A stretch of 64,000 nt of DNA, from positions 1,003-65,002 of the IMG/VR virus record IMGVR_UViG_3300033069_001603, one strand, 5' to 3'. The stretch comes from a virus (Duplodnaviria > Caudoviricetes). Within the stretch, counting starts at the first letter, position 1. Each line of letters starts with the position of its first letter. Positions 3 to 62,957 of the stretch are shown piece after piece. The translations under genes and the position numbers were made by a program. The notes beneath the pieces are model-generated. The model worked only from the letters and a program-made list of their open reading frames with translations. It made no database searches and was not told the DNA's origin.

Positions 3-167
3 AACCTAATAAGTTATTATGGCCCTAAAATATGGTGTCACGGGCACGTACATGATTTCTTTGATTATGTTGCAGGTGATACACGAGTAATGTGTAACCC
101 ACGCGGATATGTAACGCACGATGAATACACTGGTTGGGTTAATACCGGCTTGGATTTTTCCTTATAA
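3..167 (+). CDS. Metallophosphoesterase, C-terminal part (truncated by window edge)
   Basis: Manual translation: IWCHGHVHDFFDYVAGDTRVMCNPRGY, the calcineurin-like GHxH...NPRGY terminus. Confidence 0.8.
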   Translation, partial: NLISYYGPKIWCHGHVHDFFDYVAGDTRVMCNPRGYVTHDEYTGWVNTGLDFSL

Positions 168-423
168 ATTCTTCCCTTATGTTTTTGAAGTGTATTTCGA
201 ACCGATCAACTGAAGAATATAATTGCCAATAATAACTACCGTCGTACGTTAAATTTGATTTGTTTTCTGCAACAAAACAAAAACCGAATAATGTTGGTTT
301 AATTGTAAATTGTTCTAAATCGATATTATGTTCAACAAAATAATCGTATGCAAATCGAAAGGCATCTAGATCTCTGTCTAAGATGAAATCAATACCTTTT
401 AATTTGAGATACATTTGGAACAT
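139..423 (-). CDS. Small LKLK-motif family protein
   Basis: N-terminal MYLKLKG; upstream TTGACA-16-TAAAAT on minus strand (~430-457). Confidence 0.65.
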   Translation of the reverse strand: MFQMYLKLKGIDFILDRDLDAFRFAYDYFVEHNIDLEQFTIKPTLFGFCFVAENKSNLTYDGSYYWQLYSSVDRFEIHFKNIREEFIRKNPSRY

Positions 424-492
424 TGTTAAATTTTAGCAGAGTTATAATATTTGTCAATATTTATCTTGCTTATCATCGGATAAAAAGTTACA

Positions 493-1356
493 ATGTTTAC
501 GTCTAACATGCTGGGTATAAAAATGAACGAAATTAAAGATATAGACTTAGCCATTAGTATTATAAGGGCAAGCGGCGACCTTGCAACACATAAAAGATTT
601 GTAAAAGAAATAATCGATTATGTTGAATCATCTTATCTCTCTGGCATTGCTGCAATGTTAGCCGAACAGTCGCGTAGCAATAAGGATTTAATTTTAAACA
701 CAGCTAATAATTTTTTACTAAATGAATCAAAAAACATATTAAAAAATCTTAACAACAGAAATAAGATAGAACTTATAGAAGGGTGCAATGTCGCAAAAGA
801 AGATTTAACAGTTTACGATTTGATGTTTTGTATAAGATACAATACTCGAAGCGATGAGTTTTTTCAATATCTCCGGGAAAAATGTAAAACAAACCAAGTA
901 ACCTCTAGACAAGTTAAAAATTTCAAATTAGATTATTACAGTTCGTTAGAAGACAATAATCTTAAAAGGTCATTGTTATTAACTGCATCAAATGCACTTG
1001 ATAAAACTCTTAGTGCAGGTACTCTTAATCTTTTAAAATACGACTTCGATTTAATAGAAGAGCTATTACTTATTTTCCCGTCTTTAAATGTAAAAAGCAC
1101 CCAGAGTAACACAGCGGTTAACTTTTTAGCAGAAAAGCTAATAGAAACCGACAATTTGAATTTATTAGTTGATAAATTTCCAGATACGAATGTGGCTATG
1201 CAAATATTAAAACATGCAGCATATAAGAAGATAAAGATGTCGTCTAATCAATTTGATTATCTTAAAAAACATATTATGTTTAGATCTTTGAAAAAAGGTT
1301 TAACTAAAGCAACCAAGAATATAATAGAAAAGTACGGAGAAAAATATGTCTGCTAA
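493..1356 (+). CDS. Hypothetical protein
   Basis: 287 aa ORF; C-terminal ~50 aa similar to next ORF. Confidence 0.7.
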   Translation: MFTSNMLGIKMNEIKDIDLAISIIRASGDLATHKRFVKEIIDYVESSYLSGIAAMLAEQSRSNKDLILNTANNFLLNESKNILKNLNNRNKIELIEGCNVAKEDLTVYDLMFCIRYNTRSDEFFQYLREKCKTNQVTSRQVKNFKLDYYSSLEDNNLKRSLLLTASNALDKTLSAGTLNLLKYDFDLIEELLLIFPSLNVKSTQSNTAVNFLAEKLIETDNLNLLVDKFPDTNVAMQILKHAAYKKIKMSSNQFDYLKKHIMFRSLKKGLTKATKNIIEKYGEKYVC

Positions 1357-2140
1357 TTTTTGGGTCTATGACGATGAAGAATACGACGATGATATGGACG
1401 ATGAATATCGCCCATGTTGTGCCACTGAACCCGAAAAACAAGCATATCTCGAAGTTTTAAAAATCGCCGGATATGTACCCGATGAATTAAAAATCCTTGC
1501 AACTACAATATTGCAAGATCGACATAAACAAGATCTGGTTATAAGGCATTTAAACCATGATTATTTGGAAATTTTATTGCAAAACAATTTAATTAATATG
1601 CAAGTATTGTCAGTTGACTCGATTTTCATGCTTATTGATAACCACGAAGAATATGCATCTGCAGTTTTTGATATATCTAGACAAAGAGCAAAAGACGATG
1701 AAAAATTTTACAAAATATTAAAAGATTATAAAAAAAGAAACATATACGGACAACCGACTAACTTTGCACCTCTTATTATTGCAACAGACGAAGAGCTTGC
1801 CCTTAATATGAAATATGACAGATTATATTTATTTAAAAATAACAAAGCAGTATATGATGCGATACTGAACAAAGAGGTACCAAAATCATATCACTTGTCT
1901 TGTGTTAAATGCATAACTAAAATTGCAATAGAAAGAGACGAGTTGGGTAAATTGATAAATAAATTCGGATCAAAGCTTGCAATTAATGTAATCAAAGAAG
2001 CCAAAAACCGAAATATAAAAATGACAAAAGAACAACTCAAATACATTAAGAAGAATATAATGATTTCGGGTTTGCAAAAAGGCTTATCTAAACAAACTAA
2101 GAAATTAATTGAATATTACGAAAAGGAGATTTTAGATTGA
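1346..2140 (+). CDS. Hypothetical protein, paralog of upstream ORF
   Basis: 264 aa, acidic N-terminus, shared C-terminal segment. Confidence 0.7.
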   Translation: MSANFWVYDDEEYDDDMDDEYRPCCATEPEKQAYLEVLKIAGYVPDELKILATTILQDRHKQDLVIRHLNHDYLEILLQNNLINMQVLSVDSIFMLIDNHEEYASAVFDISRQRAKDDEKFYKILKDYKKRNIYGQPTNFAPLIIATDEELALNMKYDRLYLFKNNKAVYDAILNKEVPKSYHLSCVKCITKIAIERDELGKLINKFGSKLAINVIKEAKNRNIKMTKEQLKYIKKNIMISGLQKGLSKQTKKLIEYYEKEILD

Positions 2141-2523
2141 AACAAAAAACATTCATATACGCAACAATACAAAAAGAAGGATACCACTGTTTCCCTGAAG
2201 CTGCAACTAACTCAGCTTTTGCAACAGGTGACAAATACGATGTGTCTCACCTATCATATAAACATATGCACTACTTTTTTATTAAAGTGTGGGTAGAAGT
2301 AACACACAGCAACAGACAGATAGAATTTATACAATTTAGAAGATGGCTTGAAGATTTATACGGTTCGGGCACATTAGACTTAAATTCTAAAAGCTGCGAA
2401 ATGATTGCTGAAGACCTATACGGCGTAATATCAAAAAAATACCCAAATGTCGAAATAAGAATCGACGTATCAGAAGATAACATAAACGGAGCCCTAGTGG
2501 AATTTAAAGCATCAACTGCTTAA
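2137..2523 (+). CDS. QueD/6-pyruvoyl-tetrahydropterin synthase-like T-fold protein
   Basis: EGYHCF, HMHYF (HxH) and SCEMIAEDL motifs; last codons supplied by IS right end. Confidence 0.6.
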   Translation: MKQKTFIYATIQKEGYHCFPEAATNSAFATGDKYDVSHLSYKHMHYFFIKVWVEVTHSNRQIEFIQFRRWLEDLYGSGTLDLNSKSCEMIAEDLYGVISKKYPNVEIRIDVSEDNINGALVEFKASTA

Positions 2524-2690
2524 CCCTTTAGGGTTAATCTTGCCTGTTCCATTTGTTAAACTATACACTCGCCCTTACAGGCGCAATAGACGATTAAGTT
2601 TTAACTGCTACAAATTTCTTCAAGGCCATTGGGATATCATCGATCCCACTACCCCTGTTGCCTGGGTAGGTACCACCATATAAATCAACT
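2495..2690 (-). ncRNA. TnpB omegaRNA/reRNA scaffold plus flank-derived guide, copy 1 (5' limit approximate)
   Basis: DNA-level conservation with copy 2 over the tnpB 3' end and right end, with compensatory hairpin changes. Confidence 0.7.
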
Positions 2691-3796
2691 AATCCAAAAT
2701 TAAGAATATTAGTAGCTGCATTAATATCTCTATCATGCTCGCTTTTGCAGTTGGGGCAAACCCAACTCCTAATATTTAGTTTTAATTGATCCAATTTAAA
2801 ACTACAGCAACTACACATCTTCGTCGATGGGGCGTACTGCCCAATCTCATAATATGTCTTGCCATATAAATCGCACTTATATTTTACAAGTTGGGTCAGA
2901 AGACCCCAGCTTGCAACACCGATTGCTCGTGATAATTGTCGATTTTTCATTAATCCAGCTACATTTAAATTTTCAAACACAACTGTATCGTAATTACTAA
3001 CTAGGTAATTAGATAATAGATGATAATAATTGCGTTTTTGATTTGTAAGTGTCTCGTATAATTTAGCAACTTTGACTCGTTGCTTCTCGTAATTATTTGA
3101 GCCCCTCTGTTTGCGGGATAAGATCTTTTGTTGCTTTTTTAACAGCTTCGTGTTTTTTGATAGCTGCACATCTGGGTGTTGAAATTTAACTCCATCGCTA
3201 GTAATAATTAAGTCTTTAATACCTAAGTCAACACCTACGTCCTTACCCGTTAAGGGTTTTAGTTGTGCGGTTAATTCAACTAAAACAGAAATAAAATATT
3301 TACCCGAAGGAGTAAGTGATATTGTTGCTGACTTTATCTTACTGCCAGCTGGGATAGGGCGGTGATTGACGTATTTAATGGCGGTATCCAATCTTGGAAT
3401 TTTAATTCCTTCGGATGTAATTTTAATATCCCTAGTACGGAATGATTGACTGTTTGATTTCTTCTTAAATACTGGAATATTTACTTTCTTCCCTTTTCGT
3501 TTACCACTTACGGATTTGAAGAAATTATCATATGCTATACTTAAATCAGCAGATGCATGTTTAAGTACGTGGTCATCTACATTTCTAAGCCAACTAGTAC
3601 CATCTTGTTTCTTTAATTGGGTTATGGCTTTGTTACAATCAAAATTAGATAAGTGAGGTGTTTTGTTTTTGTAATTCTCAAGATTAGCATATAGAAAGTG
3701 ATTATAAACCCAACGTTTTGCGCCAAAGGCGCAACGTAGATATTGCTGTTGTTCCGCAGTTGGGTATAATCGATATTTAAAAGCTATATAATCCAT
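2594..3796 (-). CDS. tnpB: RNA-guided endonuclease TnpB
   Basis: YRLYPT HTH, GVDLG (RuvC-I D), VFENL (RuvC-II E), CSCC/CPNC Zn finger, DRDINAA (RuvC-III D). Confidence 0.95.
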   Translation of the reverse strand: MDYIAFKYRLYPTAEQQQYLRCAFGAKRWVYNHFLYANLENYKNKTPHLSNFDCNKAITQLKKQDGTSWLRNVDDHVLKHASADLSIAYDNFFKSVSGKRKGKKVNIPVFKKKSNSQSFRTRDIKITSEGIKIPRLDTAIKYVNHRPIPAGSKIKSATISLTPSGKYFISVLVELTAQLKPLTGKDVGVDLGIKDLIITSDGVKFQHPDVQLSKNTKLLKKQQKILSRKQRGSNNYEKQRVKVAKLYETLTNQKRNYYHLLSNYLVSNYDTVVFENLNVAGLMKNRQLSRAIGVASWGLLTQLVKYKCDLYGKTYYEIGQYAPSTKMCSCCSFKLDQLKLNIRSWVCPNCKSEHDRDINAATNILNFGLVDLYGGTYPGNRGSGIDDIPMALKKFVAVKT

Positions 3797-5259: not shown

Positions 5260-5550
5260 ATGTCTACTCATCTGTATATTTTATCTTGCAATGGCCTTTA
5301 TAAAATCGGTATTACTTCTGATATTAATCGCCGTATCAAAACTTTACAAACTGGCAACCCTTATACTATAACGCTCGAATATATCGAAGAGCGTTATCGT
5401 CCTGAGATGGCCGAAAACTATCTACACAAATGCTTTAAGAAGAATAGGGTATCCGGCGAATGGTTTAAAGATTTAACAATTACACAAATAAGATCTAAGT
5501 TAATGATGTATCATGATCAACTTGACGAATCAGAGACTAGGCGTAAGTAA
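5260..5550 (+). CDS. T5orf172/Mug113 (GIY-YIG-like) domain protein
   Basis: LYIL..YKIGIT....RRIKTLQTGNP...ENYLH..RVSGEWF. Confidence 0.85.
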   Translation: MSTHLYILSCNGLYKIGITSDINRRIKTLQTGNPYTITLEYIEERYRPEMAENYLHKCFKKNRVSGEWFKDLTITQIRSKLMMYHDQLDESETRRK

Positions 5551-5862
5551 TCCTTTTTTAATCATGTATTCCTTTGTTTCGTTGTTAATGCTAACAGACA
5601 CGTTGCCTTGTTTTATTTTTTCGAGCATTGCAGTTTTACTGTTTACAAATACGGCAGCATAGAATATGCCATAATTACATATATCTTCGAGCATTATTTC
5701 CCTGCGCCAGGCATGTCCGGGTCGCGGATGCCAAGTAGTAATGAAGGTAAATATACCGAGTACATCATGCGGTACATCTTGTATTCTCACAAAAAGCAAT
5801 ATGTGACAAGCATTTATGTCTATATCTGATCTACCCGAATACGAGTGAGAAATTATAGCCAT
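5530..5862 (-). CDS. Hypothetical protein with C-terminal AMLEKIK motif
   Basis: FVNSKTAMLEKIKQG. Confidence 0.6.
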   Translation of the reverse strand: MAIISHSYSGRSDIDINACHILLFVRIQDVPHDVLGIFTFITTWHPRPGHAWRREIMLEDICNYGIFYAAVFVNSKTAMLEKIKQGNVSVSINNETKEYMIKKGLLTPSL

Positions 5863-6161
5863 TATATAATACCTACTTCTGTTAGATACTGTAACAAACT
5901 TTCCGATGGTTTTTTCAAACCTGGATATTGTATTTTTGCAAGCATTGCTTCTTTTTCATCTTTAAATAGGATGCAGACGTATGTACTAAAATTAATATAT
6001 CCGTTTGTTACATGCACGTCTTCTCTAACCGAAACATAGCCGTATGTCTTCTTGCCCAGCGTAGTATCGAGATTTATATTTATTGTTGTCGGTAGAATAG
6101 TATAGACTAAAGGGCAACAAGTATCATATTCTTCAGTGATGTAGCACTTGTGATCAAACAT
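5862..6161 (-). CDS. Hypothetical protein with C-terminal AMLAKIQYP motif
   Basis: LFKDEKEAMLAKIQYPG. Confidence 0.65.
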   Translation of the reverse strand: MFDHKCYITEEYDTCCPLVYTILPTTININLDTTLGKKTYGYVSVREDVHVTNGYINFSTYVCILFKDEKEAMLAKIQYPGLKKPSESLLQYLTEVGII

Positions 6162-6200
6162 TATGATAATCTCATAAATTCTTCGCCACTTATAGATGAG

Positions 6201-6413
6201 TCAAAAATCAAAAATGTTGTTATATTTAATCTTTGCTAACATTAATTCTTTTTGATTTTTAACAATTAGATAATGATACTGAGAAGTAGGGTTAGCGCAC
6301 ACATCGGGTATATAAATGACAAAATCATCGTCCATCATTTCCGATAAAGGTATGTACCATACTCTCCTAGGGATTAAAATATCCGACTCGCACACGTCTG
6401 TTACTACTTCCAT
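6201..6413 (-). CDS. Hypothetical protein with C-terminal LMLAKIKY motif
   Basis: VKNQKELMLAKIKYN. Confidence 0.65.
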   Translation of the reverse strand: MEVVTDVCESDILIPRRVWYIPLSEMMDDDFVIYIPDVCANPTSQYHYLIVKNQKELMLAKIKYNNIFDF

Positions 6414-6697
6414 ATGCTAACTCTCTTTAAATAAAGTTGTTCGCATTCTTGTACTGGTATAAAAGAATCGGGATATTTTATTTTTTCGAGCATTGCATCT
6501 TTTTCGCTTGCAAATAAAATAATCTGCTTACAAGGATGATGAACTCTAATAACTTCTAGAAGAGTAGATCTGTAATATATCGTAACATATCCGACTATAC
6601 TACTATGAAAATCGAAGGAAAAACTGCGAGCAGCTTGCATTGGAAAGCACGATTCGAAATCTTTTAATTTAACTAAATCGTGCCGTTCTATTATCAT
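6404..6697 (-). CDS. Hypothetical protein with C-terminal AMLEKIKYP motif
   Basis: LFASEKDAMLEKIKYPD. Confidence 0.65.
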   Translation of the reverse strand: MIIERHDLVKLKDFESCFPMQAARSFSFDFHSSIVGYVTIYYRSTLLEVIRVHHPCKQIILFASEKDAMLEKIKYPDSFIPVQECEQLYLKRVSIWK

Positions 6698-7680
6698 TCA
6701 AAACCAATGCCAACCGAATTACTATCAGAAGAGGGTTTACAGCTCATCATCGTTTTGATTCTTTTCACTGCATTGTCCACAGTGACATCGAAAACTTCTA
6801 CGCTGATTATTAATTCCTTAATATGTGCAATACTAAAACCATCAGTTAATTTAACCCATTTATCCATTTCGTCTGGGTTGTTTTTTATCTTTCGGTGTTT
6901 AGATGAGATATACTGCCTACGTGCATCGGCATTTGGCATTCCAATTTTGCGCACAATATCAAATCTAGACGGTCTATTTACAATTCGCGGATCAAGTAAT
7001 TCTGGATAATTTGTTGTTGCAATACTTAACACATTATCAATTTGCAACTCGCCGTCTAACAATGCAAGTAAAGCAGATTCTCCATATTCTTTAATTATGG
7101 CATCGATGTCCTCGAGCATTAATACGACTGGAGTATCCGGTTGTATTTGTCTGAACTGTTTAAGTGCAATAGTAGCAGTGTGTGGATTAGACACGTATAC
7201 TGCAATTCCTTCTTTTTCAATTATTCGGTTTGAAACCATTTGCAGTAAGGATGTTTTTCCACTACCCGGAGGGCCATATAACATGATTCCCCTTTTCCAC
7301 AAAAAACCATGTTCTTGATAAACATCTTTTTTAGACCAAAATGTTTCAATTTCTTTTAATATTTCATCTGCCGAACTATCGCATAACTCAACGAGACTAT
7401 CGAGTGTAACTGGCACTTTTTTAAAGTAATAACCTAGGTGGTTAGAATGCCCTACCACATATTGCCCGGGTTTTAAAGTTGACACTGCTTCTTCGCATGC
7501 AGTATATGTATTGCCTTGATGTACAGCCCACATTCTCAATTCGTTTTTCGGAATTTTAACATTGTCGTGTTCTACGGCATAATCTTCTTCTAGTTCTTCT
7601 CCCTTTATCATCATAGGTCTATTACCCCTGTTTTCAAGGGCTTCTTTGAGTTTTGTTCCGAATACTTCGATATCGTTCAC
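6694..7680 (-). CDS. AAA+ ATPase
   Basis: Walker A GPPGSGKT, Walker B MLEDID, ATTNYPELLD..NRPSRFD second region of homology. Confidence 0.9.
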   Translation of the reverse strand: MNDIEVFGTKLKEALENRGNRPMMIKGEELEEDYAVEHDNVKIPKNELRMWAVHQGNTYTACEEAVSTLKPGQYVVGHSNHLGYYFKKVPVTLDSLVELCDSSADEILKEIETFWSKKDVYQEHGFLWKRGIMLYGPPGSGKTSLLQMVSNRIIEKEGIAVYVSNPHTATIALKQFRQIQPDTPVVLMLEDIDAIIKEYGESALLALLDGELQIDNVLSIATTNYPELLDPRIVNRPSRFDIVRKIGMPNADARRQYISSKHRKIKNNPDEMDKWVKLTDGFSIAHIKELIISVEVFDVTVDNAVKRIKTMMSCKPSSDSNSVGIGFE

Positions 7681-7709: not shown

Positions 7710-7961
7710 TTAGATGTTATATTTTAATTTTAAGATCATTTTTTCTTTTTCTGGCAAATCTAGAGATTTTAAGTAATCCTCCAGATATACCATTTTATCA
7801 TTTACTAGCAACCACATTTTTCTATCTTGTGTTTGGATACCAAGATCTATAGTGTGATATGCATATATTCCAAGTTCGGAAATATAGAGTTCAGAATGAT
7901 GATCTTTAAGTAACTCATACAGGCGAGCCAATGCGCCATTTAAGTCATTTGAAGAATTCAT
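7710..7961 (-). CDS. Hypothetical protein with C-terminal LKLKY motif
   Basis: EKMILKLKYNI. Confidence 0.65.
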   Translation of the reverse strand: MNSSNDLNGALARLYELLKDHHSELYISELGIYAYHTIDLGIQTQDRKMWLLVNDKMVYLEDYLKSLDLPEKEKMILKLKYNI

Positions 7962-8252: not shown

Positions 8253-8630
8253 ATGAACAAACTCGAAAAAACATATATGACTTATAAACTTAAAGGGTTT
8301 AAAATTAATTTTGTAAAAGGGGAAAATACCCTAGACCATCAATTACGCGCATTTAATATCATACAGTATCAACTTAAGAAGATAGAAAAAGAATTAAACA
8401 AAAACAATATAGATTTATATTTTGAAGAATCAAAATTTAGCATAGCCACCCATATAAGAAATACACAAGTGTACTTTACCAATGTGAAAATAGGAGTATG
8501 TTACTTATCATATACAGTTGGCTGTTTTTTAGTATTTAGATACAATGCAAGTAGTATACGGGAATCTTTCACTGATGTTAATTCTGCAATACAATATTGT
8601 ATTAAGGTAAACCAAAATGTACAAATTTGA
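8253..8630 (+). CDS. Small LKLK-motif family protein
   Basis: MTYKLKGF. Confidence 0.65.
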   Translation: MNKLEKTYMTYKLKGFKINFVKGENTLDHQLRAFNIIQYQLKKIEKELNKNNIDLYFEESKFSIATHIRNTQVYFTNVKIGVCYLSYTVGCFLVFRYNASSIRESFTDVNSAIQYCIKVNQNVQI

Positions 8631-38203: not shown

Positions 38204-38228
38204 AATTTTATTTATCAATTATTATATA

Positions 38229-42989: not shown

Positions 42990-42990
42990 C

Positions 42991-49801: not shown

Positions 49802-49820
49802 TTGCCATAGGATAGCAAAA

Positions 49821-54089: not shown

Positions 54090-54357
54090 ATTAATGATAC
54101 TTAAATTAAAGCACCCGCAGCTTAATAAATATGAGATTAAGAGACTTTGGCTTATTTCTAAATTTACTACAATAAATCACATCGAAATAGACGAAGATTA
54201 CTGTGTCCTTGCACATTTAATCAATGACGATTATATTGATATTACATACGACCCAAGCGAAAAAACTATGGTCAGGTATATGATATTTTTTACCGGTAAA
54301 GGAATAAATAGAAAATCTAATCGTCTTAAAGACATATTAACTTTAATAAAACGGTGA
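54079..54357 (+). CDS. LKLK array protein
   Basis: ELMILKLKHP. Confidence 0.7.
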   Translation: MKAELMILKLKHPQLNKYEIKRLWLISKFTTINHIEIDEDYCVLAHLINDDYIDITYDPSEKTMVRYMIFFTGKGINRKSNRLKDILTLIKR

Positions 54358-54362
54358 CTTAT

Positions 54363-54686
54363 ATGTCAGCTGAATTAATGGTGCTTAAATTAAAGTATCC
54401 AGATGTGCCAGAATATGACTTACCTTTTGTGCTGCAGGTTATAAACGACTTAGGTGCGGGATTACCAGTTAAAATAAGAAGATATACTTCTAAGTGCGAT
54501 CTAGAAATTATTTATGATTTCGGAGGGTTCCAAAGATACACACATCGACCCGACGATAGGATTTATGCTGTTTGGTTTTCTAGTTATTATTGTACATATA
54601 ACGAAGCAATTAATATGTTTAAAAAATTACAAACAAATGTAGGTAGTGGCAGTTTACTAACTTATAAGAAATACAATGTCAACTAA
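54363..54686 (+). CDS. LKLK array protein
   Basis: MSAELMVLKLKYP. Confidence 0.7.
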   Translation: MSAELMVLKLKYPDVPEYDLPFVLQVINDLGAGLPVKIRRYTSKCDLEIIYDFGGFQRYTHRPDDRIYAVWFSSYYCTYNEAINMFKKLQTNVGSGSLLTYKKYNVN

Positions 54687-54942
54687 ATTAATGTTTGGTA
54701 AACTAAAGTACCCTCATATACCAGAGGATGCACTGTTGGAATTTATAGATATCGTCAGTGCTCTTGGCGAACCAATTGACGTTTTATACAGCGGTAAAAA
54801 TAACCGTTTAGTCTTACGATATGATACAATGGAAATTTGTATATTTGTAAAATGCCCGGTAATTTATAGTCGTTATTCGCTATCTGGGTACGGATTAATA
54901 GACAAATTAGAAGAGTTGATTAAACATGCAAAAAAATGTTAG
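54676..54942 (+). CDS. LKLK array protein
   Basis: MSTKLMFGKLKYP...LGEP. Confidence 0.7.
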   Translation: MSTKLMFGKLKYPHIPEDALLEFIDIVSALGEPIDVLYSGKNNRLVLRYDTMEICIFVKCPVIYSRYSLSGYGLIDKLEELIKHAKKC

Positions 54943-55231
54943 AACGATGATGCTCAGATTACAATACCCCGATGTTGTAATACCTAACGAATTACAAGAT
55001 GACCTAGAACGATTTTTAGAATGTTTCCCTCAGTTTAAAAGAGTTCTTAACAACTGGAGTTTTAGTATTTTCAAATCTAGAATATCTTTGTCTTACCCAA
55101 AATTTAAAATAGATATTAGAAGGGAAACCCACTATACAGTATTCACCGTATATAATTCCAAAGGTAACAGATACGAATTTAGAAGAAGAAACGCGGCAAT
55201 ACTGTTTATTAAAGAAACGGGACTGTATTAA
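54926..55231 (+). CDS. LKLK array protein
   Basis: MMLRLQYP. Confidence 0.65.
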   Translation: MQKNVRTMMLRLQYPDVVIPNELQDDLERFLECFPQFKRVLNNWSFSIFKSRISLSYPKFKIDIRRETHYTVFTVYNSKGNRYEFRRRNAAILFIKETGLY

Positions 55232-55233
55232 AG

Positions 55234-55262
55234 TTGACAAAGCGACTAACGTGTGCTAAACT
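55234..55262 (+). promoter_or_regulatory. sigma70 promoter
   Basis: TTGACA-17-TAAACT. Confidence 0.7.
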
Positions 55263-55294
55263 AACGCAAGTTTAATACATTTTAGGTTCAGATT

Positions 55295-55735
55295 ATGCAT
55301 CGGGAAACTACATTAAACGCCAGAACATATCACATTCATATGTTTCGTTATACTCACTTTAACGGTACGAAATGCTGGATTACTACAAACTATAAAAACC
55401 CACAATTCGAAACATACTACGAAATTCACCATGTTTTAAAACATACCTATTTAAAACACGAACTTACGGTTAATTCCAAACTTAAACATAAGACAACTCA
55501 AGCTATATTAAATGATTTAATTAAATACGTTGCACCAACGCATATTAAAAACATCCAGTATAATTATTACAAAATTGATATAACCCAGATAGAAACAGTA
55601 AATCACTTCGAAAATATGCTCCGCCGATATATAAATACCGACCCACTAGTACATGTGGGAAATTATATACATAAACGTGTATCCACTATACAACATTACA
55701 ATGGCATCATATTTAAAAACGGTGTAGTAGTATGA
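55295..55735 (+). CDS. Hypothetical His/Tyr-rich protein (no LKLK motif)
   Basis: 146 aa, first gene after promoter. Confidence 0.55.
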   Translation: MHRETTLNARTYHIHMFRYTHFNGTKCWITTNYKNPQFETYYEIHHVLKHTYLKHELTVNSKLKHKTTQAILNDLIKYVAPTHIKNIQYNYYKIDITQIETVNHFENMLRRYINTDPLVHVGNYIHKRVSTIQHYNGIIFKNGVVV

Positions 55736-55998
55736 CCGCCGCATCAATAATATATAAACTTAGGTACGGACACAACTACTTCGAAAAGTTCTACCCTGTG
55801 ATGGATATACTTGACAACCTTAACATTCCATACAGTATATCCCAAGGCGGTAACTATTTAATCTTAAATGGCATGACATTGGTTATGTCCGACGATCGCA
55901 AAGTAATCTTTGTTATGGATACTAAAAAACCATCTACACTTCTTACATTAGAAGAATTTAAAATATATATGGATAACCTATGCACAGCCAATACTTGA
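55732..55998 (+). CDS. LKLK array protein
   Basis: IIYKLRYG. Confidence 0.65.
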   Translation: MTAASIIYKLRYGHNYFEKFYPVMDILDNLNIPYSISQGGNYLILNGMTLVMSDDRKVIFVMDTKKPSTLLTLEEFKIYMDNLCTANT

Positions 55999-56276
55999 TG
56001 CTGTTTAAACTTAAATACAACTTGTCAGATGAAAAGGCAGCGTATTTCTACGATTTACTTATGCTGATATACGAACTCAATCTCGACTTTAAACCTGGAT
56101 CAATCAAAGAAAGCGATATACTGTCTGCTTGCTATATAGGCAACAAACATATACATATATATAAAGAAGGCAATTTCAAATACTCAGTTTATAAAAAATC
56201 AATTAGAATTGGATCAACATACACATTAGATGAACTTAGGATACTTTTAAATGAAACAATTACACATGTACTTTAA
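55980..56276 (+). CDS. LKLK array protein
   Basis: LMLFKLKYN. Confidence 0.65.
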   Translation: MHSQYLMLFKLKYNLSDEKAAYFYDLLMLIYELNLDFKPGSIKESDILSACYIGNKHIHIYKEGNFKYSVYKKSIRIGSTYTLDELRILLNETITHVL

Positions 56277-56571
56277 AATTAAGTACAATATCCGTTCACC
56301 CGAGTTAGAATTCTTTATGCCTGTGTTTATGGCATTCCACAACCTTAATAAACCGATAACTGTGTATCCAACATCATCGTCTGATTCAAATTACTGTATA
56401 TTATTTAAAAAAGACAACTACGAATTGTACATTACGAATAAGGACAACGTCCTTAATTTACAATCATCGTCACCTATGTACCTCGTGTCAGAATACAATA
56501 GTACAGATTTAATAAACGGAAAGATCCACCATATGAATATACAGGACTTACTATGCAAAATAACGAACTGA
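56251..56571 (+). CDS. LKLK array protein
   Basis: MYFKIKYN. Confidence 0.65.
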   Translation: MKQLHMYFKIKYNIRSPELEFFMPVFMAFHNLNKPITVYPTSSSDSNYCILFKKDNYELYITNKDNVLNLQSSSPMYLVSEYNSTDLINGKIHHMNIQDLLCKITN

Positions 56572-56819
56572 TATTCTACATACTTAAATACAACGCAAAA
56601 GAAGAAATGATAATCCAATTATACGACGCGATTAAACTCTTCGAACGGAATGATATCATCTTTACCCTCCACACAAATAATGCAAGACTGAGTAATAAAC
56701 ATTATATAAGGTACAACAACACACATATATACAATGAACACACAAAGTATGCACTGTATAAAGATCAAATGATATGGCGGACCGCCACACTAGAAGAACT
56801 AATAAAGGTATTAACATGA
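56553..56819 (+). CDS. LKLK array protein
   Basis: LIFYILKYN. Confidence 0.65.
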   Translation: MQNNELIFYILKYNAKEEMIIQLYDAIKLFERNDIIFTLHTNNARLSNKHYIRYNNTHIYNEHTKYALYKDQMIWRTATLEELIKVLT

Positions 56820-57127
56820 ATAATCAACTGATATTCTACAAACTTAAATACGGTGCAGTCCCAACTAAAACCATAAGGAAATATATTATATGGCTTGATA
56901 TCCTCAACGAATATAACTTCCCCGCGACTTTTACAATTAGTCCCCCATCACCAGAATACTACTTAAAATATGTATCAAAAAATCTTGTTATGTTTATAAT
57001 TTATAATAGCTGCAATCGAGTTAATGTTGGAATATACAGTAATACATCTACATCGCGACACTTTACATTAGACGAAACTAGATTTAAACTATTACTTAAG
57101 AAAATAAAAGATGAATACAAATCTTAA
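56816..57127 (+). CDS. LKLK array protein
   Basis: LIFYKLKYG; start moved to ATG 56816. Confidence 0.65.
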   Translation: MNNQLIFYKLKYGAVPTKTIRKYIIWLDILNEYNFPATFTISPPSPEYYLKYVSKNLVMFIIYNSCNRVNVGIYSNTSTSRHFTLDETRFKLLLKKIKDEYKS

Positions 57128-57333
57128 AGCACATCTTATGCTACTTGGTATAAGCAAAGAAGAAATGAAAATAACTTTAATACAGATAAATTACTTAAAA
57201 CAAAGAAATATACAAACAACAGTGGATCGTAATAGAATTTAACTTACAACACGACAACAAATACTTCGAAATCGAACAATCCGTACATAAATGCAAACCC
57301 TCAGAATTACTTGGCTACTTAGAAGATATTTGA
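57111..57333 (+). pseudogene. Frameshifted paralog of ORF 50360
   Basis: MNTNLKAHLMLLG..., TAA at 57240; next frame NLQHDNKYFEIEQSVHK matches SMHDGIYFEVSDSLHR. Confidence 0.65.
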
Positions 57334-57550
57334 AACAACTGGTATACTATAAACTTAAATATATCACAAATCAATATTGATAACTATACTCGACTCCATT
57401 AATGATACTTTTACAATACATACTAACAGACAAAGGGATCAAACTTATATTAGAACTAATATTTACAAAGACCTTGTACATAGTAAGATGTATATATTAT
57501 TATATAGAGGCAATATTAGATATGATTACATTATGGCTGCTAATGAATAA
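57330..57550 (+). pseudogene. Frameshifted LKLK array gene
   Basis: TTG start LKQLVYYKLKY, then ~60 open codons in another frame. Confidence 0.55.
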
Positions 57551-58080
57551 TAATCATCTATATTAAGGTATATACATATAACAGTGTAAACGTATACTGA
57601 TTATGTACGAAACGGTGTTGTGTAGAGTACGTTAAAAAGCTGACTCTATTAGCGGGTAAAATTGACATTATTAGACATTATTAGAACGTAGGGTAGTAGC
57701 AAAAAACATATGGTAATGGTGTTATAATATACCAACTTCTAAACAATAACCGTAAGAAATCAACACCTTAGTAAGAAGATGTAAAAATTCACCGTAATCA
57801 AACGGTATATTTAAAAAACCTACCATATAAAAGGTAGTCTAAACCATTGTATAACAATATTCTGTAATACCATTTCTTTTAATATTTCAAAACCGTATCA
57901 ATTATAGGAGATACTCATCTTTATGTAAAAGGGTATGATCAACAGCAGTGCCTTCACCTTCAACAATTGTTCTTAAAGTTTAACCCCGATCCCGTAGGGA
58001 GGTATTATAAAAGTAACAATCTATTAGTATTCAGTGTAATCAAAGAGTCTAGCATACAAATTATAGACTTTCATTCTAAC
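57470..58080. other. Putative replication origin or genome-end junction (GC-skew switch, ORF-free)
   Basis: C>G to the left, G>C to the right with genes on the same strand; 10-bp tandem repeat, ACCGT motifs, hairpin. Confidence 0.55.
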
Positions 58081-58081
58081 C

Positions 58082-58110
58082 TTGACATAGTGTATAAAAT
58101 ATGTTAAAGT
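58082..58110 (+). promoter_or_regulatory. sigma70 promoter
   Basis: TTGACA-17-TAAAGT. Confidence 0.7.
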
Positions 58111-58158
58111 AGTTGTATTACATGTTTATTTATCATTTTTATTTCAAATGGATTAATT

Positions 58159-58443
58159 ATGTCCGTAGAAGTTAATAAAATGCTGTTACGTATTAAGTAT
58201 CCAACTTTTCCAGTTGAGTATTTAGATGATATGTATCAAGTTGAGCGTATAGGTGGAGTAATCGCTGCGGAATATTCGCCGTGGTATGCTAGTTATTATA
58301 TATTTCAATTCACATATAACAGTCAGAAATATAAGATAGAGAGGAATTGTGATTTTTTAAAATTAATTATTATGTCGCGGAATATGATATTATTTCGTTC
58401 GATTGAAGAATTAATAGGTGTGTTATGTCAACTTCGGCAATGA
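58159..58443 (+). CDS. LKLK array protein
   Basis: KMLLRIKYP. Confidence 0.7.
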   Translation: MSVEVNKMLLRIKYPTFPVEYLDDMYQVERIGGVIAAEYSPWYASYYIFQFTYNSQKYKIERNCDFLKLIIMSRNMILFRSIEELIGVLCQLRQ

Positions 58444-58694
58444 TGTTCAAGCTTAAATATAATTGTGTTTTAGTTAATAGTTACCTCGACGATATTAATT
58501 ATATAATTAAAAAATTAGGTGAGCCTGTACAAATAAATTACTCTAATAGTATATATTTAATGCGTTATAATAGTTCGGATTCTGTTAGTATAAGGTATAT
58601 AAGAATATTCGATCTTAAAAAATACATATTAAGATATGATTCTACGTATTGTGCTTTAACAAATGACATCGACCGTGCAATAAGGGGTGTGTAG
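58425..58694 (+). CDS. LKLK array protein
   Basis: MSTSAMMFKLKYN...LGEP. Confidence 0.7.
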   Translation: MSTSAMMFKLKYNCVLVNSYLDDINYIIKKLGEPVQINYSNSIYLMRYNSSDSVSIRYIRIFDLKKYILRYDSTYCALTNDIDRAIRGV

Positions 58695-58958
58695 ATGTCA
58701 ACTGAAGCGATGATATTAAAGATTAAGTACAATATATTAGAGTGGGCAATCAATGATGTTAATCGAATCATATCAAACTTAGGCGAACCTATTAGTATTG
58801 TATATAATAACAATTATTATACTTTGCATTATCTAGAAGGGTATATTATGTTATTTGATTTTAAATTTGGTTATGGCTTAAGATATTCTGGTCATGCCGA
58901 TGAATTAACTGATGATTTGCTTTCGATAATAGGTAGAATATGTCGACTTCGGAAATGA
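58695..58958 (+). CDS. LKLK array protein
   Basis: MSTEAMILKIKYN...LGEP. Confidence 0.7.
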   Translation: MSTEAMILKIKYNILEWAINDVNRIISNLGEPISIVYNNNYYTLHYLEGYIMLFDFKFGYGLRYSGHADELTDDLLSIIGRICRLRK

Positions 58959-59191
58959 TGTTGAAGATTAAGTATGGGATATCGCCGTGGGCATCGGCTG
59001 AGTCCATCCGTATTTTATCTGCATTAGGCGAACCTATTAGTGTTGAATGTCGAGAAAATAACTATATTTTATATTATCTAGAAGGGTATATTAGGATCTT
59101 TAATACTGAATTTAGCTATAAGTTAAGATATTCTAGTTATAATGCTGGTTTAACAGGTGACTTAGATGAAGTATTGAGGAAATTTAGATGA
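58940..59191 (+). CDS. LKLK array protein
   Basis: MSTSEMMLKIKYG...LGEP. Confidence 0.7.
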   Translation: MSTSEMMLKIKYGISPWASAESIRILSALGEPISVECRENNYILYYLEGYIRIFNTEFSYKLRYSSYNAGLTGDLDEVLRKFR

Positions 59192-59478
59192 CAGTTGATT
59201 CGATGATATTAAAAATAAAGTATCCCGATGTGCCGGATCATATTGTAGATATAATTGAGCATATTAAATCTATATCAGTATACGAATGGGAATATCGGAA
59301 GAGTAAGGTATATGAAGATGTGTATTCTTTGTGGCACGATGATTTCTATATTAGGATATTTGATGATCCTGTTATTGTATACGATAGTTGCATTGATGCT
59401 GAAGAAAACGATTTAGATTATGTTTTAAGTAATGCAGAGATGCATATTGGAAGTAGAAAATGTCAACTTCGGCAATAG
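59188..59478 (+). CDS. LKLK array protein
   Basis: SMILKIKYP. Confidence 0.7.
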   Translation: MTVDSMILKIKYPDVPDHIVDIIEHIKSISVYEWEYRKSKVYEDVYSLWHDDFYIRIFDDPVIVYDSCIDAEENDLDYVLSNAEMHIGSRKCQLRQ

Positions 59479-59711
59479 TAAGTAAGTTAAAATACGGGGT
59501 AGTTATACCCGATCAATTTATACCTGATGCTGAGAAGATTATATCTGAATTGGGTAGGTATAGTAGTATAAAAGTGGACAGTGAAGGTGTAGTTATGTAT
59601 TACGGTTGGAGTAATATTATCATATTATATAAAGGTAGATATTCAACGCCTTATTGTGGGTCAGTATATAGTTTAGATGTTGCAATAGATTCGATGCGTG
59701 GGAGGATATAA
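59460..59711 (+). CDS. LKLK array protein
   Basis: MSTSAIVSKLKYG. Confidence 0.7.
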   Translation: MSTSAIVSKLKYGVVIPDQFIPDAEKIISELGRYSSIKVDSEGVVMYYGWSNIIILYKGRYSTPYCGSVYSLDVAIDSMRGRI

Positions 59712-60011
59712 GTGTCAACTGAAGCGATGATGTTGAAGATGAAGTATCCGATATTTTCTAATAATGTATTAGGTAATATGGTTATTTTATTTCGTGAAGT
59801 AGGTGAACCAGATAACATCATGTATAATGATCATTCTGAAAGGTTCCAATATGTTAGTATCTGGTACGGTTCGATAGTATTTCAATATAGGGAAGACAAT
59901 AGGTATAACGACGATGATATGATATATACGCACTCTGGGTTAGGTGAGTATTGTTATTTTTGGGATGCGTTAGAATCGTTTAAGGAGTTAAGATGTCAAC
60001 TGAAGCAATGA
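59712..60011 (+). CDS. LKLK array protein
   Basis: GTG start, STEAMMLKMKYP...VGEP. Confidence 0.7.
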   Translation: MSTEAMMLKMKYPIFSNNVLGNMVILFREVGEPDNIMYNDHSERFQYVSIWYGSIVFQYREDNRYNDDDMIYTHSGLGEYCYFWDALESFKELRCQLKQ

Positions 60012-60268
60012 TATTAAAGATGAGATATGGTTGTGAGTTTGATGACATATCAAGGGCAATAGATGCTATCGGCCAATATCCTGAGAAGATAACAAAAGAT
60101 GAGTATCATTGTAAGATATCAATGTTTTACAATAAAGACATTGTGTTTCAAATATTTTATAGAAAAGCAAGAACCAAAAACGGATATAGTTATTACGGTG
60201 GAGGTATGTGTTCTTTTAATAAAGCCGTAAGTAGAATAAGAGAGAAATTATGTCAACTTCAAAAATGA
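59993..60268 (+). CDS. LKLK array protein
   Basis: MSTEAMILKMRYG. Confidence 0.7.
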   Translation: MSTEAMILKMRYGCEFDDISRAIDAIGQYPEKITKDEYHCKISMFYNKDIVFQIFYRKARTKNGYSYYGGGMCSFNKAVSRIREKLCQLQK

Positions 60269-60519
60269 TACTCAAACTTAAATACAATGTGTCGGATGAT
60301 TTATTACATTCGTTAATACGCATTATAGATGCGTTAGGTGAGCCTATTAGTGTTGAGTTTCCTATGAGCGACATAATGTATGTGTATTACAGTGAGGGCA
60401 TACGTATAGAGAGATATAACAATGCCAATTCATACTCGATTAAAAGTTACAGTGGCTTTATGTGTTTTGATGATGCCGTACGTGAGATAAAAGGGCAATT
60501 ATGTCGACCTCAAAATTAG
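60250..60519 (+). CDS. LKLK array protein
   Basis: MSTSKMILKLKYN...LGEP. Confidence 0.7.
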   Translation: MSTSKMILKLKYNVSDDLLHSLIRIIDALGEPISVEFPMSDIMYVYYSEGIRIERYNNANSYSIKSYSGFMCFDDAVREIKGQLCRPQN

Positions 60520-60761
60520 TATTTCGATTAAAATACAGTGATATACCTTTGCGATATGTTGACGATGCATATGTTTTTGTGTGTGAGTTAGGCAATCCCC
60601 TTAGGTATATAGTTGATTTAAATGGATATGGCGGTGTAATATTATATTACAATAAGGACAGTGTAGTGCTTTACGCATTGGGTAGATATATTAATCATTA
60701 TTGCGCTTATAAATATGACGGTGGCGATATTAGTATGGCAATTGAGTCTCTAAGAGATTAA
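60501..60761 (+). CDS. LKLK array protein
   Basis: MSTSKLVFRLKYS...LGNP. Confidence 0.7.
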   Translation: MSTSKLVFRLKYSDIPLRYVDDAYVFVCELGNPLRYIVDLNGYGGVILYYNKDSVVLYALGRYINHYCAYKYDGGDISMAIESLRD

Positions 60762-60766
60762 TAATC

Positions 60767-61054
60767 ATGTCAACTATAGAATTAGTATTTAAGTTAAGAT
60801 ATGGTGTTGATATCCCTAGTTGGTGTATAGATGATGTTAATTTTGCAATATTATCACTTGGGTATCCTGACAAGATCACGTATTATAAGGGAGTCTCTGC
60901 TTTAGTTGACTCTAGTTTGTATATGTATTATGACATGTATACTGTATTACAGTTATATGAAAATAAGGCGTACAGTTGTTTTGCTAAAGGTTATATGCGT
61001 ACATTAGACGAAGCAATAAGTCGTATAAAGGAACAGTTATGTCAACAGAATTAA
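60767..61054 (+). CDS. LKLK array protein
   Basis: MSTIELVFKLRYG...LGYP. Confidence 0.7.
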   Translation: MSTIELVFKLRYGVDIPSWCIDDVNFAILSLGYPDKITYYKGVSALVDSSLYMYYDMYTVLQLYENKAYSCFAKGYMRTLDEAISRIKEQLCQQN

Positions 61055-61299
61055 TGCTATTAAAATTAAAGTGTCCTATGATACCACCCGAAGATCATAG
61101 TAATATGTTAATTTTATTTCGTGAAGTAGGTGAGCCGGATTATGCTGATGCCGATGGTTATGTATTATTGTTGCATTACGGTAAACATCTGTTTGAGTGT
61201 TACGGTAGTCATAGACGATATTCAACTAATGAATCGGAATATTATATGGAATTTAAAGATGCGTTAGCATTATTTAAAAAGTCGTTAGGAAGAAAATAA
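61039..61299 (+). CDS. LKLK array protein
   Basis: MSTELMLLKLKCP...VGEP. Confidence 0.7.
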   Translation: MSTELMLLKLKCPMIPPEDHSNMLILFREVGEPDYADADGYVLLLHYGKHLFECYGSHRRYSTNESEYYMEFKDALALFKKSLGRK

Positions 61300-61610
61300 T
61301 GTTAAAATATATACGTAACAAAGCAATGATGTTAAAGTTAACGTATCCAGGATTAGAATTCCGAGAGGAAGCGCGACGAGCCGCAATAGTATCTATGTTT
61401 TTCACTATAGAAGATATCAAAGACGGTGCAATCGTAGACATTGGCGGCGATTACAGTATAGACATAGGGATAGTTAAAGGTTATTCAATTTTAGATGATG
61501 CCCACAATTATCCTTATGTTTTATATTATATGGACGAGGATATAGCAATGTCTTATAGTATAAAAGATATGATAGAAGCATATGAGATACATGCCCCGGA
61601 TGATATATGA
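61299..61610 (+). CDS. LKLK array protein
   Basis: AMMLKLTYP. Confidence 0.7.
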   Translation: MLKYIRNKAMMLKLTYPGLEFREEARRAAIVSMFFTIEDIKDGAIVDIGGDYSIDIGIVKGYSILDDAHNYPYVLYYMDEDIAMSYSIKDMIEAYEIHAPDDI

Positions 61611-61894
61611 TAACATTAAGAGAAGTATCTCAACGTGCAATGTGTTATAAATTGCAATATGGTCTATGTTACCATGAATCTAGGCGATTAGCTTTAATAT
61701 CGATGTTCTTCAGTATAAAAGCAGTAAAGCGTAATTTAGCAATAGTAGGGGATCATGAGATTGATTTTTGTTATGTTGGCGGCAATAATATAATGGGTGT
61801 GGCTTTAGAGCCATATTATTTATATCGGAGCGGCGAAGACGAAGTTATACTAACAACGTATCGATTAAAGGATATAGCATGTCATCTGAATTAA
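61607..61894 (+). CDS. LKLK array protein
   Basis: AMCYKLQYG; paralog of 61299. Confidence 0.7.
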   Translation: MITLREVSQRAMCYKLQYGLCYHESRRLALISMFFSIKAVKRNLAIVGDHEIDFCYVGGNNIMGVALEPYYLYRSGEDEVILTTYRLKDIACHLN

Positions 61895-62166
61895 TGTTAC
61901 TTAAAATTAAATACGGGGATATTCCGTCTTGGATTGCATTTGACCTTGAAAAAATAAAATCAGTATTAGGCGAAGATTGCGTATTAACAGCAATTGGCAA
62001 AAACTACTATACTTTAATTTATGACGAATTATATATTACAATCTACGATGTGATTAATTTTGGTTATGCATACAAATACACAAGTACGGGTATCGGTTTA
62101 ACAGATGACTTAGATAGAGTCATAGCAACTGTAAAGAAGCTTATGTTATGTCATCCGCAGCAATGA
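61879..62166 (+). CDS. LKLK array protein
   Basis: MSSELMLLKIKYG. Confidence 0.7.
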   Translation: MSSELMLLKIKYGDIPSWIAFDLEKIKSVLGEDCVLTAIGKNYYTLIYDELYITIYDVINFGYAYKYTSTGIGLTDDLDRVIATVKKLMLCHPQQ

Positions 62167-62447
62167 TATTAAAGTTAAAGTATCCTTATTTTCCAGCTAA
62201 GTATCTTAGCGATTTTACAAAAATATCAGATGCATTTAGTTGCGGTAACGGTTACACTGTTGAGCCAAAACTAAAAACTTTATTTTGGGCATACGTAGTC
62301 GAAATAAAGTACAACGACAAATACGTTGACTATATTGCATTGTATCAAAGCGTGGAAAAGTATACAGTCCAAGGTAATAATTACTTTAACGACCTTGACT
62401 CGGCAATTAACTTTTTATTGGTTAAAACATGTCAACTTCAAAAATGA
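62148..62447 (+). CDS. LKLK array protein
   Basis: MSSAAMILKLKYP; paralog of 51428. Confidence 0.7.
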   Translation: MSSAAMILKLKYPYFPAKYLSDFTKISDAFSCGNGYTVEPKLKTLFWAYVVEIKYNDKYVDYIALYQSVEKYTVQGNNYFNDLDSAINFLLVKTCQLQK

Positions 62448-62740
62448 TGTTTAAAATTAAGTACCCTGATTTTCCAGAAGATGTCATCGATGATTGTGTA
62501 TATGCAATATCGATCTTAGGAGAACCGCATAGTGTATATATATTGAAAGAGTGGTATGGATTACATTACGGAAAAGCGAATTATTTTGCAATAACACTTG
62601 ATATTTTTGGTCATAGAAGTTACACGGGTTTAAATCTAAGTTATTATACAAAAATCGAAGAAGTAGTTCATTTAATAAAAAGAGGTATTGAAGGTGACAA
62701 TACAACATATGGTAGCAAAGATTCGGGGAGTCCCCGTTAA
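62429..62740 (+). CDS. LKLK array protein
   Basis: MSTSKMMFKIKYP...LGEP. Confidence 0.7.
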   Translation: MSTSKMMFKIKYPDFPEDVIDDCVYAISILGEPHSVYILKEWYGLHYGKANYFAITLDIFGHRSYTGLNLSYYTKIEEVVHLIKRGIEGDNTTYGSKDSGSPR

Positions 62741-62957
62741 CTTATTAAATGATTATAATGAGATTACTGCTAAGATAAACCAGCCATATGATCTTTATAT
62801 ATTTAAAAGGGAACAAGTGAGATTAGAATATAAAAATTTCACTATTTGTATACTGCCCGATAACCGTTATGCATTTAAATATGATACTGCAACCGACAGA
62901 CAACATTTATATCCAAAGTATAAAAGCGAATTGTATTTTTTAGCAAAAGTAACTTGA
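62688..62957 (+). CDS. LKLK array protein (divergent)
   Basis: HMVAKIRG. Confidence 0.55.
   Translation: MKVTIQHMVAKIRGVPVNLLNDYNEITAKINQPYDLYIFKREQVRLEYKNFTICILPDNRYAFKYDTATDRQHLYPKYKSELYFLAKVT

Follow-up and report, generated by a model that had tools for sequence, protein, structure and literature searches.

What is a bacterial virus doing with the same ten residues on dozens of its small proteins? The question is raised by 64,000 nucleotides of DNA from a tailed virus of the Caudoviricetes (IMG/VR record IMGVR_UViG_3300033069_001603, positions 1,003 to 65,002), which we refer to as the window. The residues make up a short motif, M/L-x-L-K-L-K-Y-P/G or L-K-L-K-G, that stands at the start of many open reading frames (ORFs) and near the end of a few. 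An initial annotation, made from the letters of the DNA alone, had read it as a portable, position-independent tag that addresses many small proteins to one receptor. The observation was real, if inflated in its count, and the reading placed on it finds support in part. Encoded here is a new orphan gene family whose paralogs are unusually numerous for a phage and have a hyper-conserved helix in common. The motif is predicted to be that helix. As for its purpose, the most likely reading, which we hold at a little better than an even chance, is that this family helix forms a shared contact site.

A motif far more frequent than chance

Of 169 non-overlapping ORFs, 58 contain the core of the motif, written as the regular expression [LIVMFA][KR][LIVMF][KRQ][YHGC]; 200 shuffles of their residues gave 5.7 ± 2.4 (maximum 15). 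The simpler L-K-[LIVM]-K alone is found in 31 of the 169, against 3.6. The motif search by profile that the initial annotation had proposed was run over all 746 stop-to-stop frames of the window, with a profile iterated on its own matches and with reversed and shuffled sequences as decoys. At 8 bits or more there were 48 matches, with none in the reversed and none in the shuffled decoys; at 4 bits or more there were 63, against one to three in decoys. Four of the 63 lie on implausible frames, leaving about 59 plausible ones, which divide into about 50 N-terminal and nine or ten C-terminal carriers by profile (nine to 11 C-terminal overall). Looser L-K-L-(K/L/M)-G variants, recognized by eye, would add 15 to 20 ORFs of about 100 to 125 residues (sites at 139, 8253, 8617, 10247–11217, 30165–31576, 46581, 50098 and 50360) and bring the total near 80.

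The motif exists, then, in far more ORFs than chance gives, and the figure of about 80 N-terminal and 11 C-terminal carriers with which it was introduced is best taken as an upper bound. Every C-terminal site that had been named was recovered (5530, 5862, 6201, 6404, 7710, 9522, 11760, 12139, 22306, 31579 and 32024, ORFs being cited by their first coordinate), the one placed at 11802 being ORF 11760. It had also been said that none of the recognizable proteins carries the motif, and this holds for the ORFs of recognized families that were checked: DNA ligase, RIIA, SIR2, PTH2, YqeY, RNase_T, HD, Toprim, TnpB and an AAA ATPase.

One family in a tandem array

Most carriers belong together in a more intimate way than by a shared beginning. 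From about 46.3 to 63.0 kb the plus strand is a head-to-tail succession of genes for proteins of 83 to 118 residues, which take up 92% of the DNA; at 50 of the 59 junctions neighboring genes overlap, the median overlap being 17 nucleotides. The family takes about 20 kb in all, some 30% of the 64-kb window. A hidden Markov model (HMM), seeded with 32 members and iterated, joined 58 ORFs over their full length, and the alignment of the 32 (A1) has a mean column identity of 23% and the consensus M-S-T-x-x-M-x-L-K-L-K-Y-P ... L-G-E-P ... Y. Are these proteins related once the motif is hidden? With the motif masked by X, a profile of the core alone matched 33 ORFs at E < 1e-3 and no decoy, and all 33 have the motif. 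The family numbers at least 33 provable copies and about 50 to 70 probable ones.

The copies of the array are old and mostly intact. Best paralog pairs have a median identity of 38% and none exceeds 51%. Nearest paralogs lie a median of six ranks apart in the array, somewhat closer than the 9.7 given by chance. The isoelectric points (pI) of members run from 4.4 to 10.0. The start block of the genes, ATGTCAACTGAA, encodes in another frame the end of the upstream protein, C-Q-L-N/R/K-stop.

About 1 kb of the array, from 57127 to 58159, is without a full-length family gene and holds a truncated copy with L-K-A-H-L-M-L-L-G (57111–57242) and short ORFs. Ahead of the second array block, at 58082–58110, lies a promoter-like TTGACA-17-TAAAGT. 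A promoter scan of the array as a whole gave 117 sites against 111 in shuffles, which is no excess and is uninformative on timing.

The motif as the first helix of a domain

Within the alignments the motif ranks as the most conserved part of its carriers. Residues 3–13 of A1, which make up the predicted first helix (a1) and its cap, average 2.69 bits per site, against 1.17 for the second helix (a2), 1.35 for the strands and 1.27 for the third helix (a3). Residue 9 is lysine in 31 of the 32 members and residue 11 in 30, the remainder being arginine. The codons tell a different story from the residues. L8, K9, L10, K11, Y12 and P13 are all written with mixed synonymous codons (21 AAA and 10 AAG for K9, all four for P13), and because these vary freely it is the protein, not the DNA, that is under selection. 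Only the codons of S2 and T3 are fixed (23 of 25 members write S2 as TCA, a codon with 21% usage in the window), and both sit in the overlap that encodes the upstream C-terminus.

What does such a protein look like? An AlphaFold2 model of one member, 51706–51969, made on A1 and of high confidence overall (Table 1), has a1 at residues 3–11, a2 at 17–30, strands at 35–38, 42–48, 51–56 and 61–63, and a3 at 73–84. Its predicted local distance difference test (pLDDT) values are 89 for residues 1–10 and 95 for residues 11–20. The motif had been described as a short amphipathic helix. Short and helical it is in this model; amphipathic it is not, the hydrophobic moment at 100 degrees being only 0.10–0.34 for five versions of the motif, with K9 and K11 about 160 degrees apart. 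Positions 6, 7, 8, 10 and 12 are all hydrophobic, and the alternating L-K-L-K-Y would gain an amphipathic character only when taken as a strand, with a moment of about 0.7.

In 20 of the 24 members measured, 17 to 19 residues separate the motif from the G of G-E-P. Such a spacing would not be maintained by a free tag hung on a flexible linker. At least 33 carriers share a confidently folded domain and this fixed spacing; the motif is therefore better taken as a helix of the family than as a free label, and on the model a1 is integral to the folded domain in most carriers. The initial annotation had itself named an integral helix of one shared domain, in all carriers, as the finding that would speak against a tag. 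The helix is of that kind in at least 33 of them, but not in all. For its central proposal, many small proteins addressed to one receptor, we found no receptor and no sorting or cleavage signal.

The same residues near the C-terminus

A minority of carriers have the motif at the other end. In four tandem paralogs (5530–6697) it lies 2 to 22 residues from the C-terminus and scores 5.7–21.9 bits; K66 and M69 are invariant in their alignment (A2), where the motif is the best-kept stretch at 24–27% identity. In two further paralogs, 31579 and 32024 (A4), L-K-Y is invariant at 26% identity. Taking A2 and A4 together with the alignment of three MORN-like proteins (A3), the motif is the best-kept stretch in each group at 23–30% identity. 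It comes within four residues of the C-terminus in four proteins (7710, 11760, 12139 and 6201). Two descriptions given of these carriers deserve a qualification. The MORN-like character is borderline, as 11760–12149 matches PF07661 (MORN) with E 1.4e-6 and 28.3 bits, just under the cut-off of 29.6, and 12139 and 22306 are linked to it only by A3. Membrane anchoring refers to an N-terminal hydrophobic run of about 25 residues in 31579 and 32024, seen by eye.

The claim that the motif is independent of position thus stands in part: it is found at both protein ends and in at least five architectures, but no fewer than 33 carriers have it as helix 1 of a common domain. The match of the family profile to the 22306 protein runs on into a2 (profile positions 1–33), from which the mobile unit may be an a1–a2 hairpin; this protein has no relative of similar length (69–221 residues) among 5.8 billion clusters. 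An AlphaFold model of 6404–6697, with five relatives as its alignment, shows strands followed by helices at 65–74 and 82–92, at a pLDDT of 41. Circular permutation of, or hidden homology to, the family core was considered for the C-terminal carriers and rejected at the sequence level (core HMM E 23–83). One other protein ends suggestively. The 528-residue product of 16977–18563 (plus strand), which has a weak lipase PHROG match, closes with V-F-K-F-R-Y-G-G-V-S-A-I; this satisfies the loose regular expression, fails the motif profile and is probably a chance occurrence.

Between C-terminal carriers 7710 and 6404–5530 sits an AAA ATPase of the classical type, 6694–7680, the only one in the window. 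About 100 residues at its N-terminus are unassigned. Its closest solved relatives are B. subtilis YjoB and Cdc48/p97, and its best phage relatives come from the uncultured huge phages LR756511, LR756500 and LR756508 (32–38% identity), which have no enrichment of the motif within 20 kb on either side of their genes. The five carriers that flank the ATPase amount to two independent events, one gene and one paralog cluster.

Carriers at the edge of the family

Some N-terminal carriers are harder to place. For the scattered ones at 36525–39497, homology of the cores is not provable once the motif is removed. The L-K-L-K-G group (A5) compared with A1 by hhalign gives a weak E of 0.0033 over 75 colinear columns, and the 55732–57127 group compared with the family gives 0.0022, also weak; profile–profile tests of diverged carriers range overall from E 0.002 to 0.5, and for about 15 others they yielded no provable homology beyond the motif. 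The cores of these proteins may be either very diverged or replaced.

Three genes of this kind, among the roughly 17 N-terminal carriers that cannot be linked to the core once the motif is hidden, lie within the array itself. At 52228–52530, 58159–58443 and 61299–61894 the start block is kept and the middle fails the core profile with the motif masked; the 52228 and 58159 genes also retain the end block of the family (C-Q-L/Q-x). In these three the core may have been swapped, like a cassette, between junction blocks that are conserved.

Relatives and folds

Where else is this family found? Single members hit no family in Pfam or PHROGs, and even at E values up to 5 no Pfam family recurs among the 32 members. 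In a profile search of the Protein Data Bank (PDB) with the family no match had an E below 0.35; Foldseek, run on PDB and BFVD, gave nothing at E ≤ 0.001, and the ESM Atlas, queried with the whole protein and with residues 1–34, gave no clear match. The best VIA-align Z score was 5.1, for the FP domain of Fbxo7, followed by MotA (4.5–4.6) and frataxins (4.0–4.6), all in the range of common arrangements. Most of these fold matches span residues 16–87 and leave a1 out.

Among 1.84 billion representative proteins, a profile search found 33 matches. All but one belong to the window itself or are near-identical to its proteins; the remaining one has 44% identity. It comes from a diverged relative, on contigs of 0.5 kb (ENA ERZ764804 L001:1-547, and L002) with three consecutive family genes, 44–55% identical to members in the window, with the same overlap and the motif intact. 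A word-indexed search brought no further relatives. DNA pattern scans of viral and metagenome contigs returned none, though these collections may leave out the records in question. A literature search for comparable phage arrays found nothing relevant. The family is thus present in at least one diverged relative and was seen nowhere else in the searches made.

What the helix may be for

The picture we favor is of an orphan α/β domain of about 90 residues, specific to this phage lineage, that would have been multiplied by old tandem duplications. The outcome would be the head-to-tail, translationally overlapping array on the plus strand at about 46–63 kb, with scattered older copies elsewhere. 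What was called a tag would be helix a1, made of an N-cap S/T, the run E-x-M-x-L-K-L-K-Y and a P/G/N helix stop, with a loop of fixed length leading to a2. It would act as a constant handle packed on the domain, rather than as a cleavable or free address label. Along with the G-E-P turn and the conserved tyrosines, a1 may form a single invariant surface while the rest of the surface varies freely (pI 4.4–10). Such a constant patch would be a shared contact site, through which members bind either each other or a single common partner, and different specificities would come from the variable cores, a pattern to be expected of paralog arrays that diversify in host–phage conflict. The C-terminal carriers probably gained the helix by recombination within the genome and retain it for the same contact.

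Several points weigh against this picture. About 17 N-terminal carriers are not tied to the family core without the motif and may have other folds, which would favor a free tag. As the structural matches mostly span 16–87, a1 could be a loosely attached appendage. The model of the C-terminal carrier 6404–6697 is of low confidence. The polymorphism test is underpowered: metagenome variants (99.1–99.9% identical) differ in the 500 motif codons by one synonymous change and no non-synonymous one; the 4227 codons elsewhere have 15 and 14, respectively (29 in all), and these numbers are too small to use.

We concede a real minority chance to the tag reading of the initial annotation, an autonomous, position-independent peptide that docks many unrelated small proteins onto one receptor, be it a host hub, the scaffold or capsid, a chaperone or a protease, with the phage's own AAA ATPase as a candidate. 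It would account for the motif at both termini and in at least five architectures, for its conservation in three groups with paralogs, for lysines that are nearly invariant in a family of 23% mean identity, and for the four proteins that all but end with it; the fold matches that omit a1, the roughly 17 unlinked N-terminal cores and the five C-terminal carriers around the window's only classical AAA ATPase point the same way. Yet at least 33 carriers have the helix inside one confidently folded domain with a fixed linker, the motif is not amphipathic as a helix, and no receptor was identified. The genes beside the ATPase count as only two independent events, and the relatives of that ATPase in huge phages lack such a motif within 20 kb. 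Somewhat less probable again is a portable docking module through which 60 to 80 proteins, with diversified or different bodies, would engage one hub (a host machine or the phage's own AAA ATPase). If true, this would be a phage analogue of F-box and p97-cofactor adaptor repertoires, expanded in a host–phage arms race.

Might the helix simply hold the domain together? Here a1 would be a purely structural cap, and the C-terminal copies would have arisen incidentally, when array genes recombined through their conserved 5' ends with neighboring genes. The high-confidence packing in the model, the fixed linker and the N-cap and C-cap signals visible in the sequence all suit such a helix, and recombination could act on the start block, which is conserved. 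The difficulty is that K9 and K11, residues of a surface type, are kept more strictly than most core positions (replaced by arginine in one and two of the 32 members), and that the C-terminal motif survives at 23–30% identity in three paralog groups, unlike a neutral relic. We regard this explanation as unlikely, though not as unlikely as two others that are close to excluded. One is that the DNA itself is what matters, as a signal for translation coupling or initiation or as a recombination block, with the peptide a side effect. The first 12–20 nucleotides of most array genes (ATGTCAAC...) are indeed fixed as DNA and contain the upstream stop, and the TCA codon of S2 is part of this; but the L-K-L-K-Y-P codons lie beyond the median 17-nucleotide overlap and mix their synonyms, and other genes have the motif internally or as their end, with no constant distance to the next start. 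For the L-K-L-K-Y-P part this reading is largely refuted by the sequences, and we think it very improbable overall. Fainter still is the chance of a T4-like capsid-targeting sequence, an N-terminal peptide that loads diverse anti-defense proteins into the prohead and is then cut. The phage does have T4-like genes (RIIA and DNA ligase), and the T-even internal proteins are diverse with the targeting sequence as their sole common part (PMC3012670). Here, however, [LI]xE occurs within the first 30 residues of just 11 of the 32 members, at scattered positions, so that there is no conserved site of the T4 prohead-protease type after the motif; C-terminal copies exist, the helix is part of a fold whose core 33 carriers share, and 50 or more packaged species would be without precedent. 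The family helix as a shared contact site remains the reading we prefer.

Setting and gene content

The window is nearly all of a contig of 65,002 bases, with a G+C content of 30–37%. Near-identical DNA (99.1–100%) is found in one JGI metagenome contig and in several Logan assemblies. The sequencing runs that contain most of the stretch are labeled as river and wastewater metagenomes, with no RNA run among those listed; in runs with a low share of it, the window is represented by short low-depth pieces only. Database searches found no cultured relative of the phage, a phage collection had neither a DNA nor a protein match to the family, and an IMG/VR search with the DNA ligase had no match. 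Besides the features of Table 1, the window encodes HD and Toprim proteins. The two TnpB genes have near-identical N-termini, and the copy at 37007–38218 sits amid the scattered family genes of 36.5–39.5 kb.

Table 1. Motif carriers, family genes and other features of the window, in order of position (pTM, predicted template modeling score)
Feature	Position	Strand	Basis or detail
L-K-L-K-G N-terminal carrier	139–423	−	iterated HMM
Two TnpB genes	2594–3796 and 37007–38218	− (both)	OrfB_IS605 and Cas12f1-like TNB
Four tandem paralogs with C-terminal motif (5530, 5862, 6201, 6404)	5530–6697	−	motif E-K-E/D-A/L-M-L-x-K-I-K-Y-P after a strand-rich part
Classical AAA ATPase (Cdc48/p97/YjoB-like)	6694–7680	−	PF00004 E 7.8e-16; PDB YjoB 2.4e-30, Cdc48 3.7e-28
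83-residue protein ending E-K-M-I-L-K-L-K-Y-N-I-stop	7710–7961	−	motif profile 18.2 bits
L-K-L-(K/L/M)-G subgroup (8253, 8617, 8988, 9290, 10247, 10542, 10882)	8253–11217	+	alignment A5
136-residue protein, K-E-L-M-V-K-T-L-K-Y-P at residues 81–91	9522–9932	−	motif profile 8.3 bits
Two MORN-like proteins ending M-M-M-L-R-L-K-Y-G-D-stop and degenerate E-L-M-V-L-V-L-L-N-G-stop	11760–12423	+	alignment A3, motif profile
Third MORN-like paralog, motif at 96–104	22306–22686	−	alignment A3, motif profile, iterated HMM
Host-like enzyme run	25690–28602	−	SIR2 (E 2.7e-46), DUF5661 protein, YqeY, PTH2 peptidyl-tRNA hydrolase, RNase_T exonuclease
L-K-L-K-G carriers (30165, 30464, 30979, 31265)	30165–31576	+	iterated HMM, alignment A5
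Two paralogs (31579, 32024), N-terminal hydrophobic anchor, motif 16–25 residues from C-terminus	31579–32500	+	alignment A4
RIIA homologue	34198–36336		PHROG 612, E 6e-92
Scattered, more diverged N-terminal carriers (36525, 38234, 38652, 38959, 39219), broken by minus-strand TnpB element	36525–39497	+	iterated HMM, motif profile
Weak N-terminal carriers (40928–41242, 41441–41830, 42991–43317), Y-K-L-R-Y-P type	40928–43317	+	profile 3–11 bits
ATP-dependent DNA ligase	43337–44707		48% identity to Pseudomonas phage hairong ligase
Array block 1, genes of about 85–118 residues, mostly M-S-T-x-x-M-x-L-K-L-K-Y-P/G start	46328–57127	+	ORF list, iterated HMM, motif profile
Modeled family member, 87 residues	51706–51969	+	AlphaFold2 on A1, pLDDT 93.5, pTM 0.82
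Motif M-M-L-K-L-K-Y-P, codons 6–13 of modeled member	51721–51744	+	just 3' of overlap with upstream gene
Array block 2, members most alike	58159–62957	+	cores homologous with motif masked

Comparison with known systems

In the compact genomes of phages it is rare for more than a few paralogs to be kept, and no phage is known to us in which an orphan family reaches 50 copies. That about 30% of a 64-kb stretch should be given over to one such family, diverged to about 23–38% identity, points to long selection for many versions of one small protein. Common to all copies is a ten-residue helix with two nearly invariant lysines, which also occurs on other small proteins, MORN-like and membrane-anchored ones among them. 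Should it prove to be a common contact site, a bacterial virus would offer a repertoire, compact and tractable, that is built on a constant handle and a variable face, and many small proteins that bind or inhibit host functions could be drawn from it. Should the helix be only structural, what is left is still a clear phage gene-family expansion and a new fold family, with no relatives in 1.84 billion representative proteins.

In T4 the capsid-targeting sequence is found at the N-terminus only, and the prohead protease cuts it off. T-even internal proteins are diverse and share only this sequence (PMC3012670). Our phage resembles T4 with its IPI–IPIII in having a short conserved terminal peptide on diverse small proteins, as in that variable T4-like region (PMC3012670). 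It differs in lacking a cleavage site, in the whole domain that is common to most carriers and into which the helix is predicted to be folded, and in having C-terminal copies.

Over residues 16–87 the predicted fold has the order of helix, antiparallel strands and helix that is seen in frataxin/CyaY, the C-terminal domain of T4 MotA, TriTu and AcrIIA11 (Z 4.0–4.8), although these scores are below the level of a fold call, a1 is outside most of the alignments and there is no sequence signal.

Adaptor families offer another comparison. F-box and SOCS-box proteins, the poxvirus Ank/PRANC proteins and the VIM and VBM helices of p97 cofactors all combine a constant docking motif with variable target-binding parts. 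The resemblance lies in a constant short helix, a variable remainder, a lineage-specific tandem expansion and use at either end of the protein. There is, in contrast, no relation in sequence or fold, the best structural match being the FP domain of Fbxo7 (Z 5.1) and not its F-box, and we know of no ubiquitin-like system of this kind in bacteria.

Tandem viral multigene families are familiar from elsewhere, among them the MGF families of African swine fever virus and the MORN, ankyrin and F-box expansions of giant viruses. Those belong to viruses of eukaryotes and their sequences are unrelated to the ones described here. What they have in common with our array is dozens of diverged paralogs set head to tail near the end of a genome or contig, with conserved N-termini and a role that is either unknown or one of interaction with the host.

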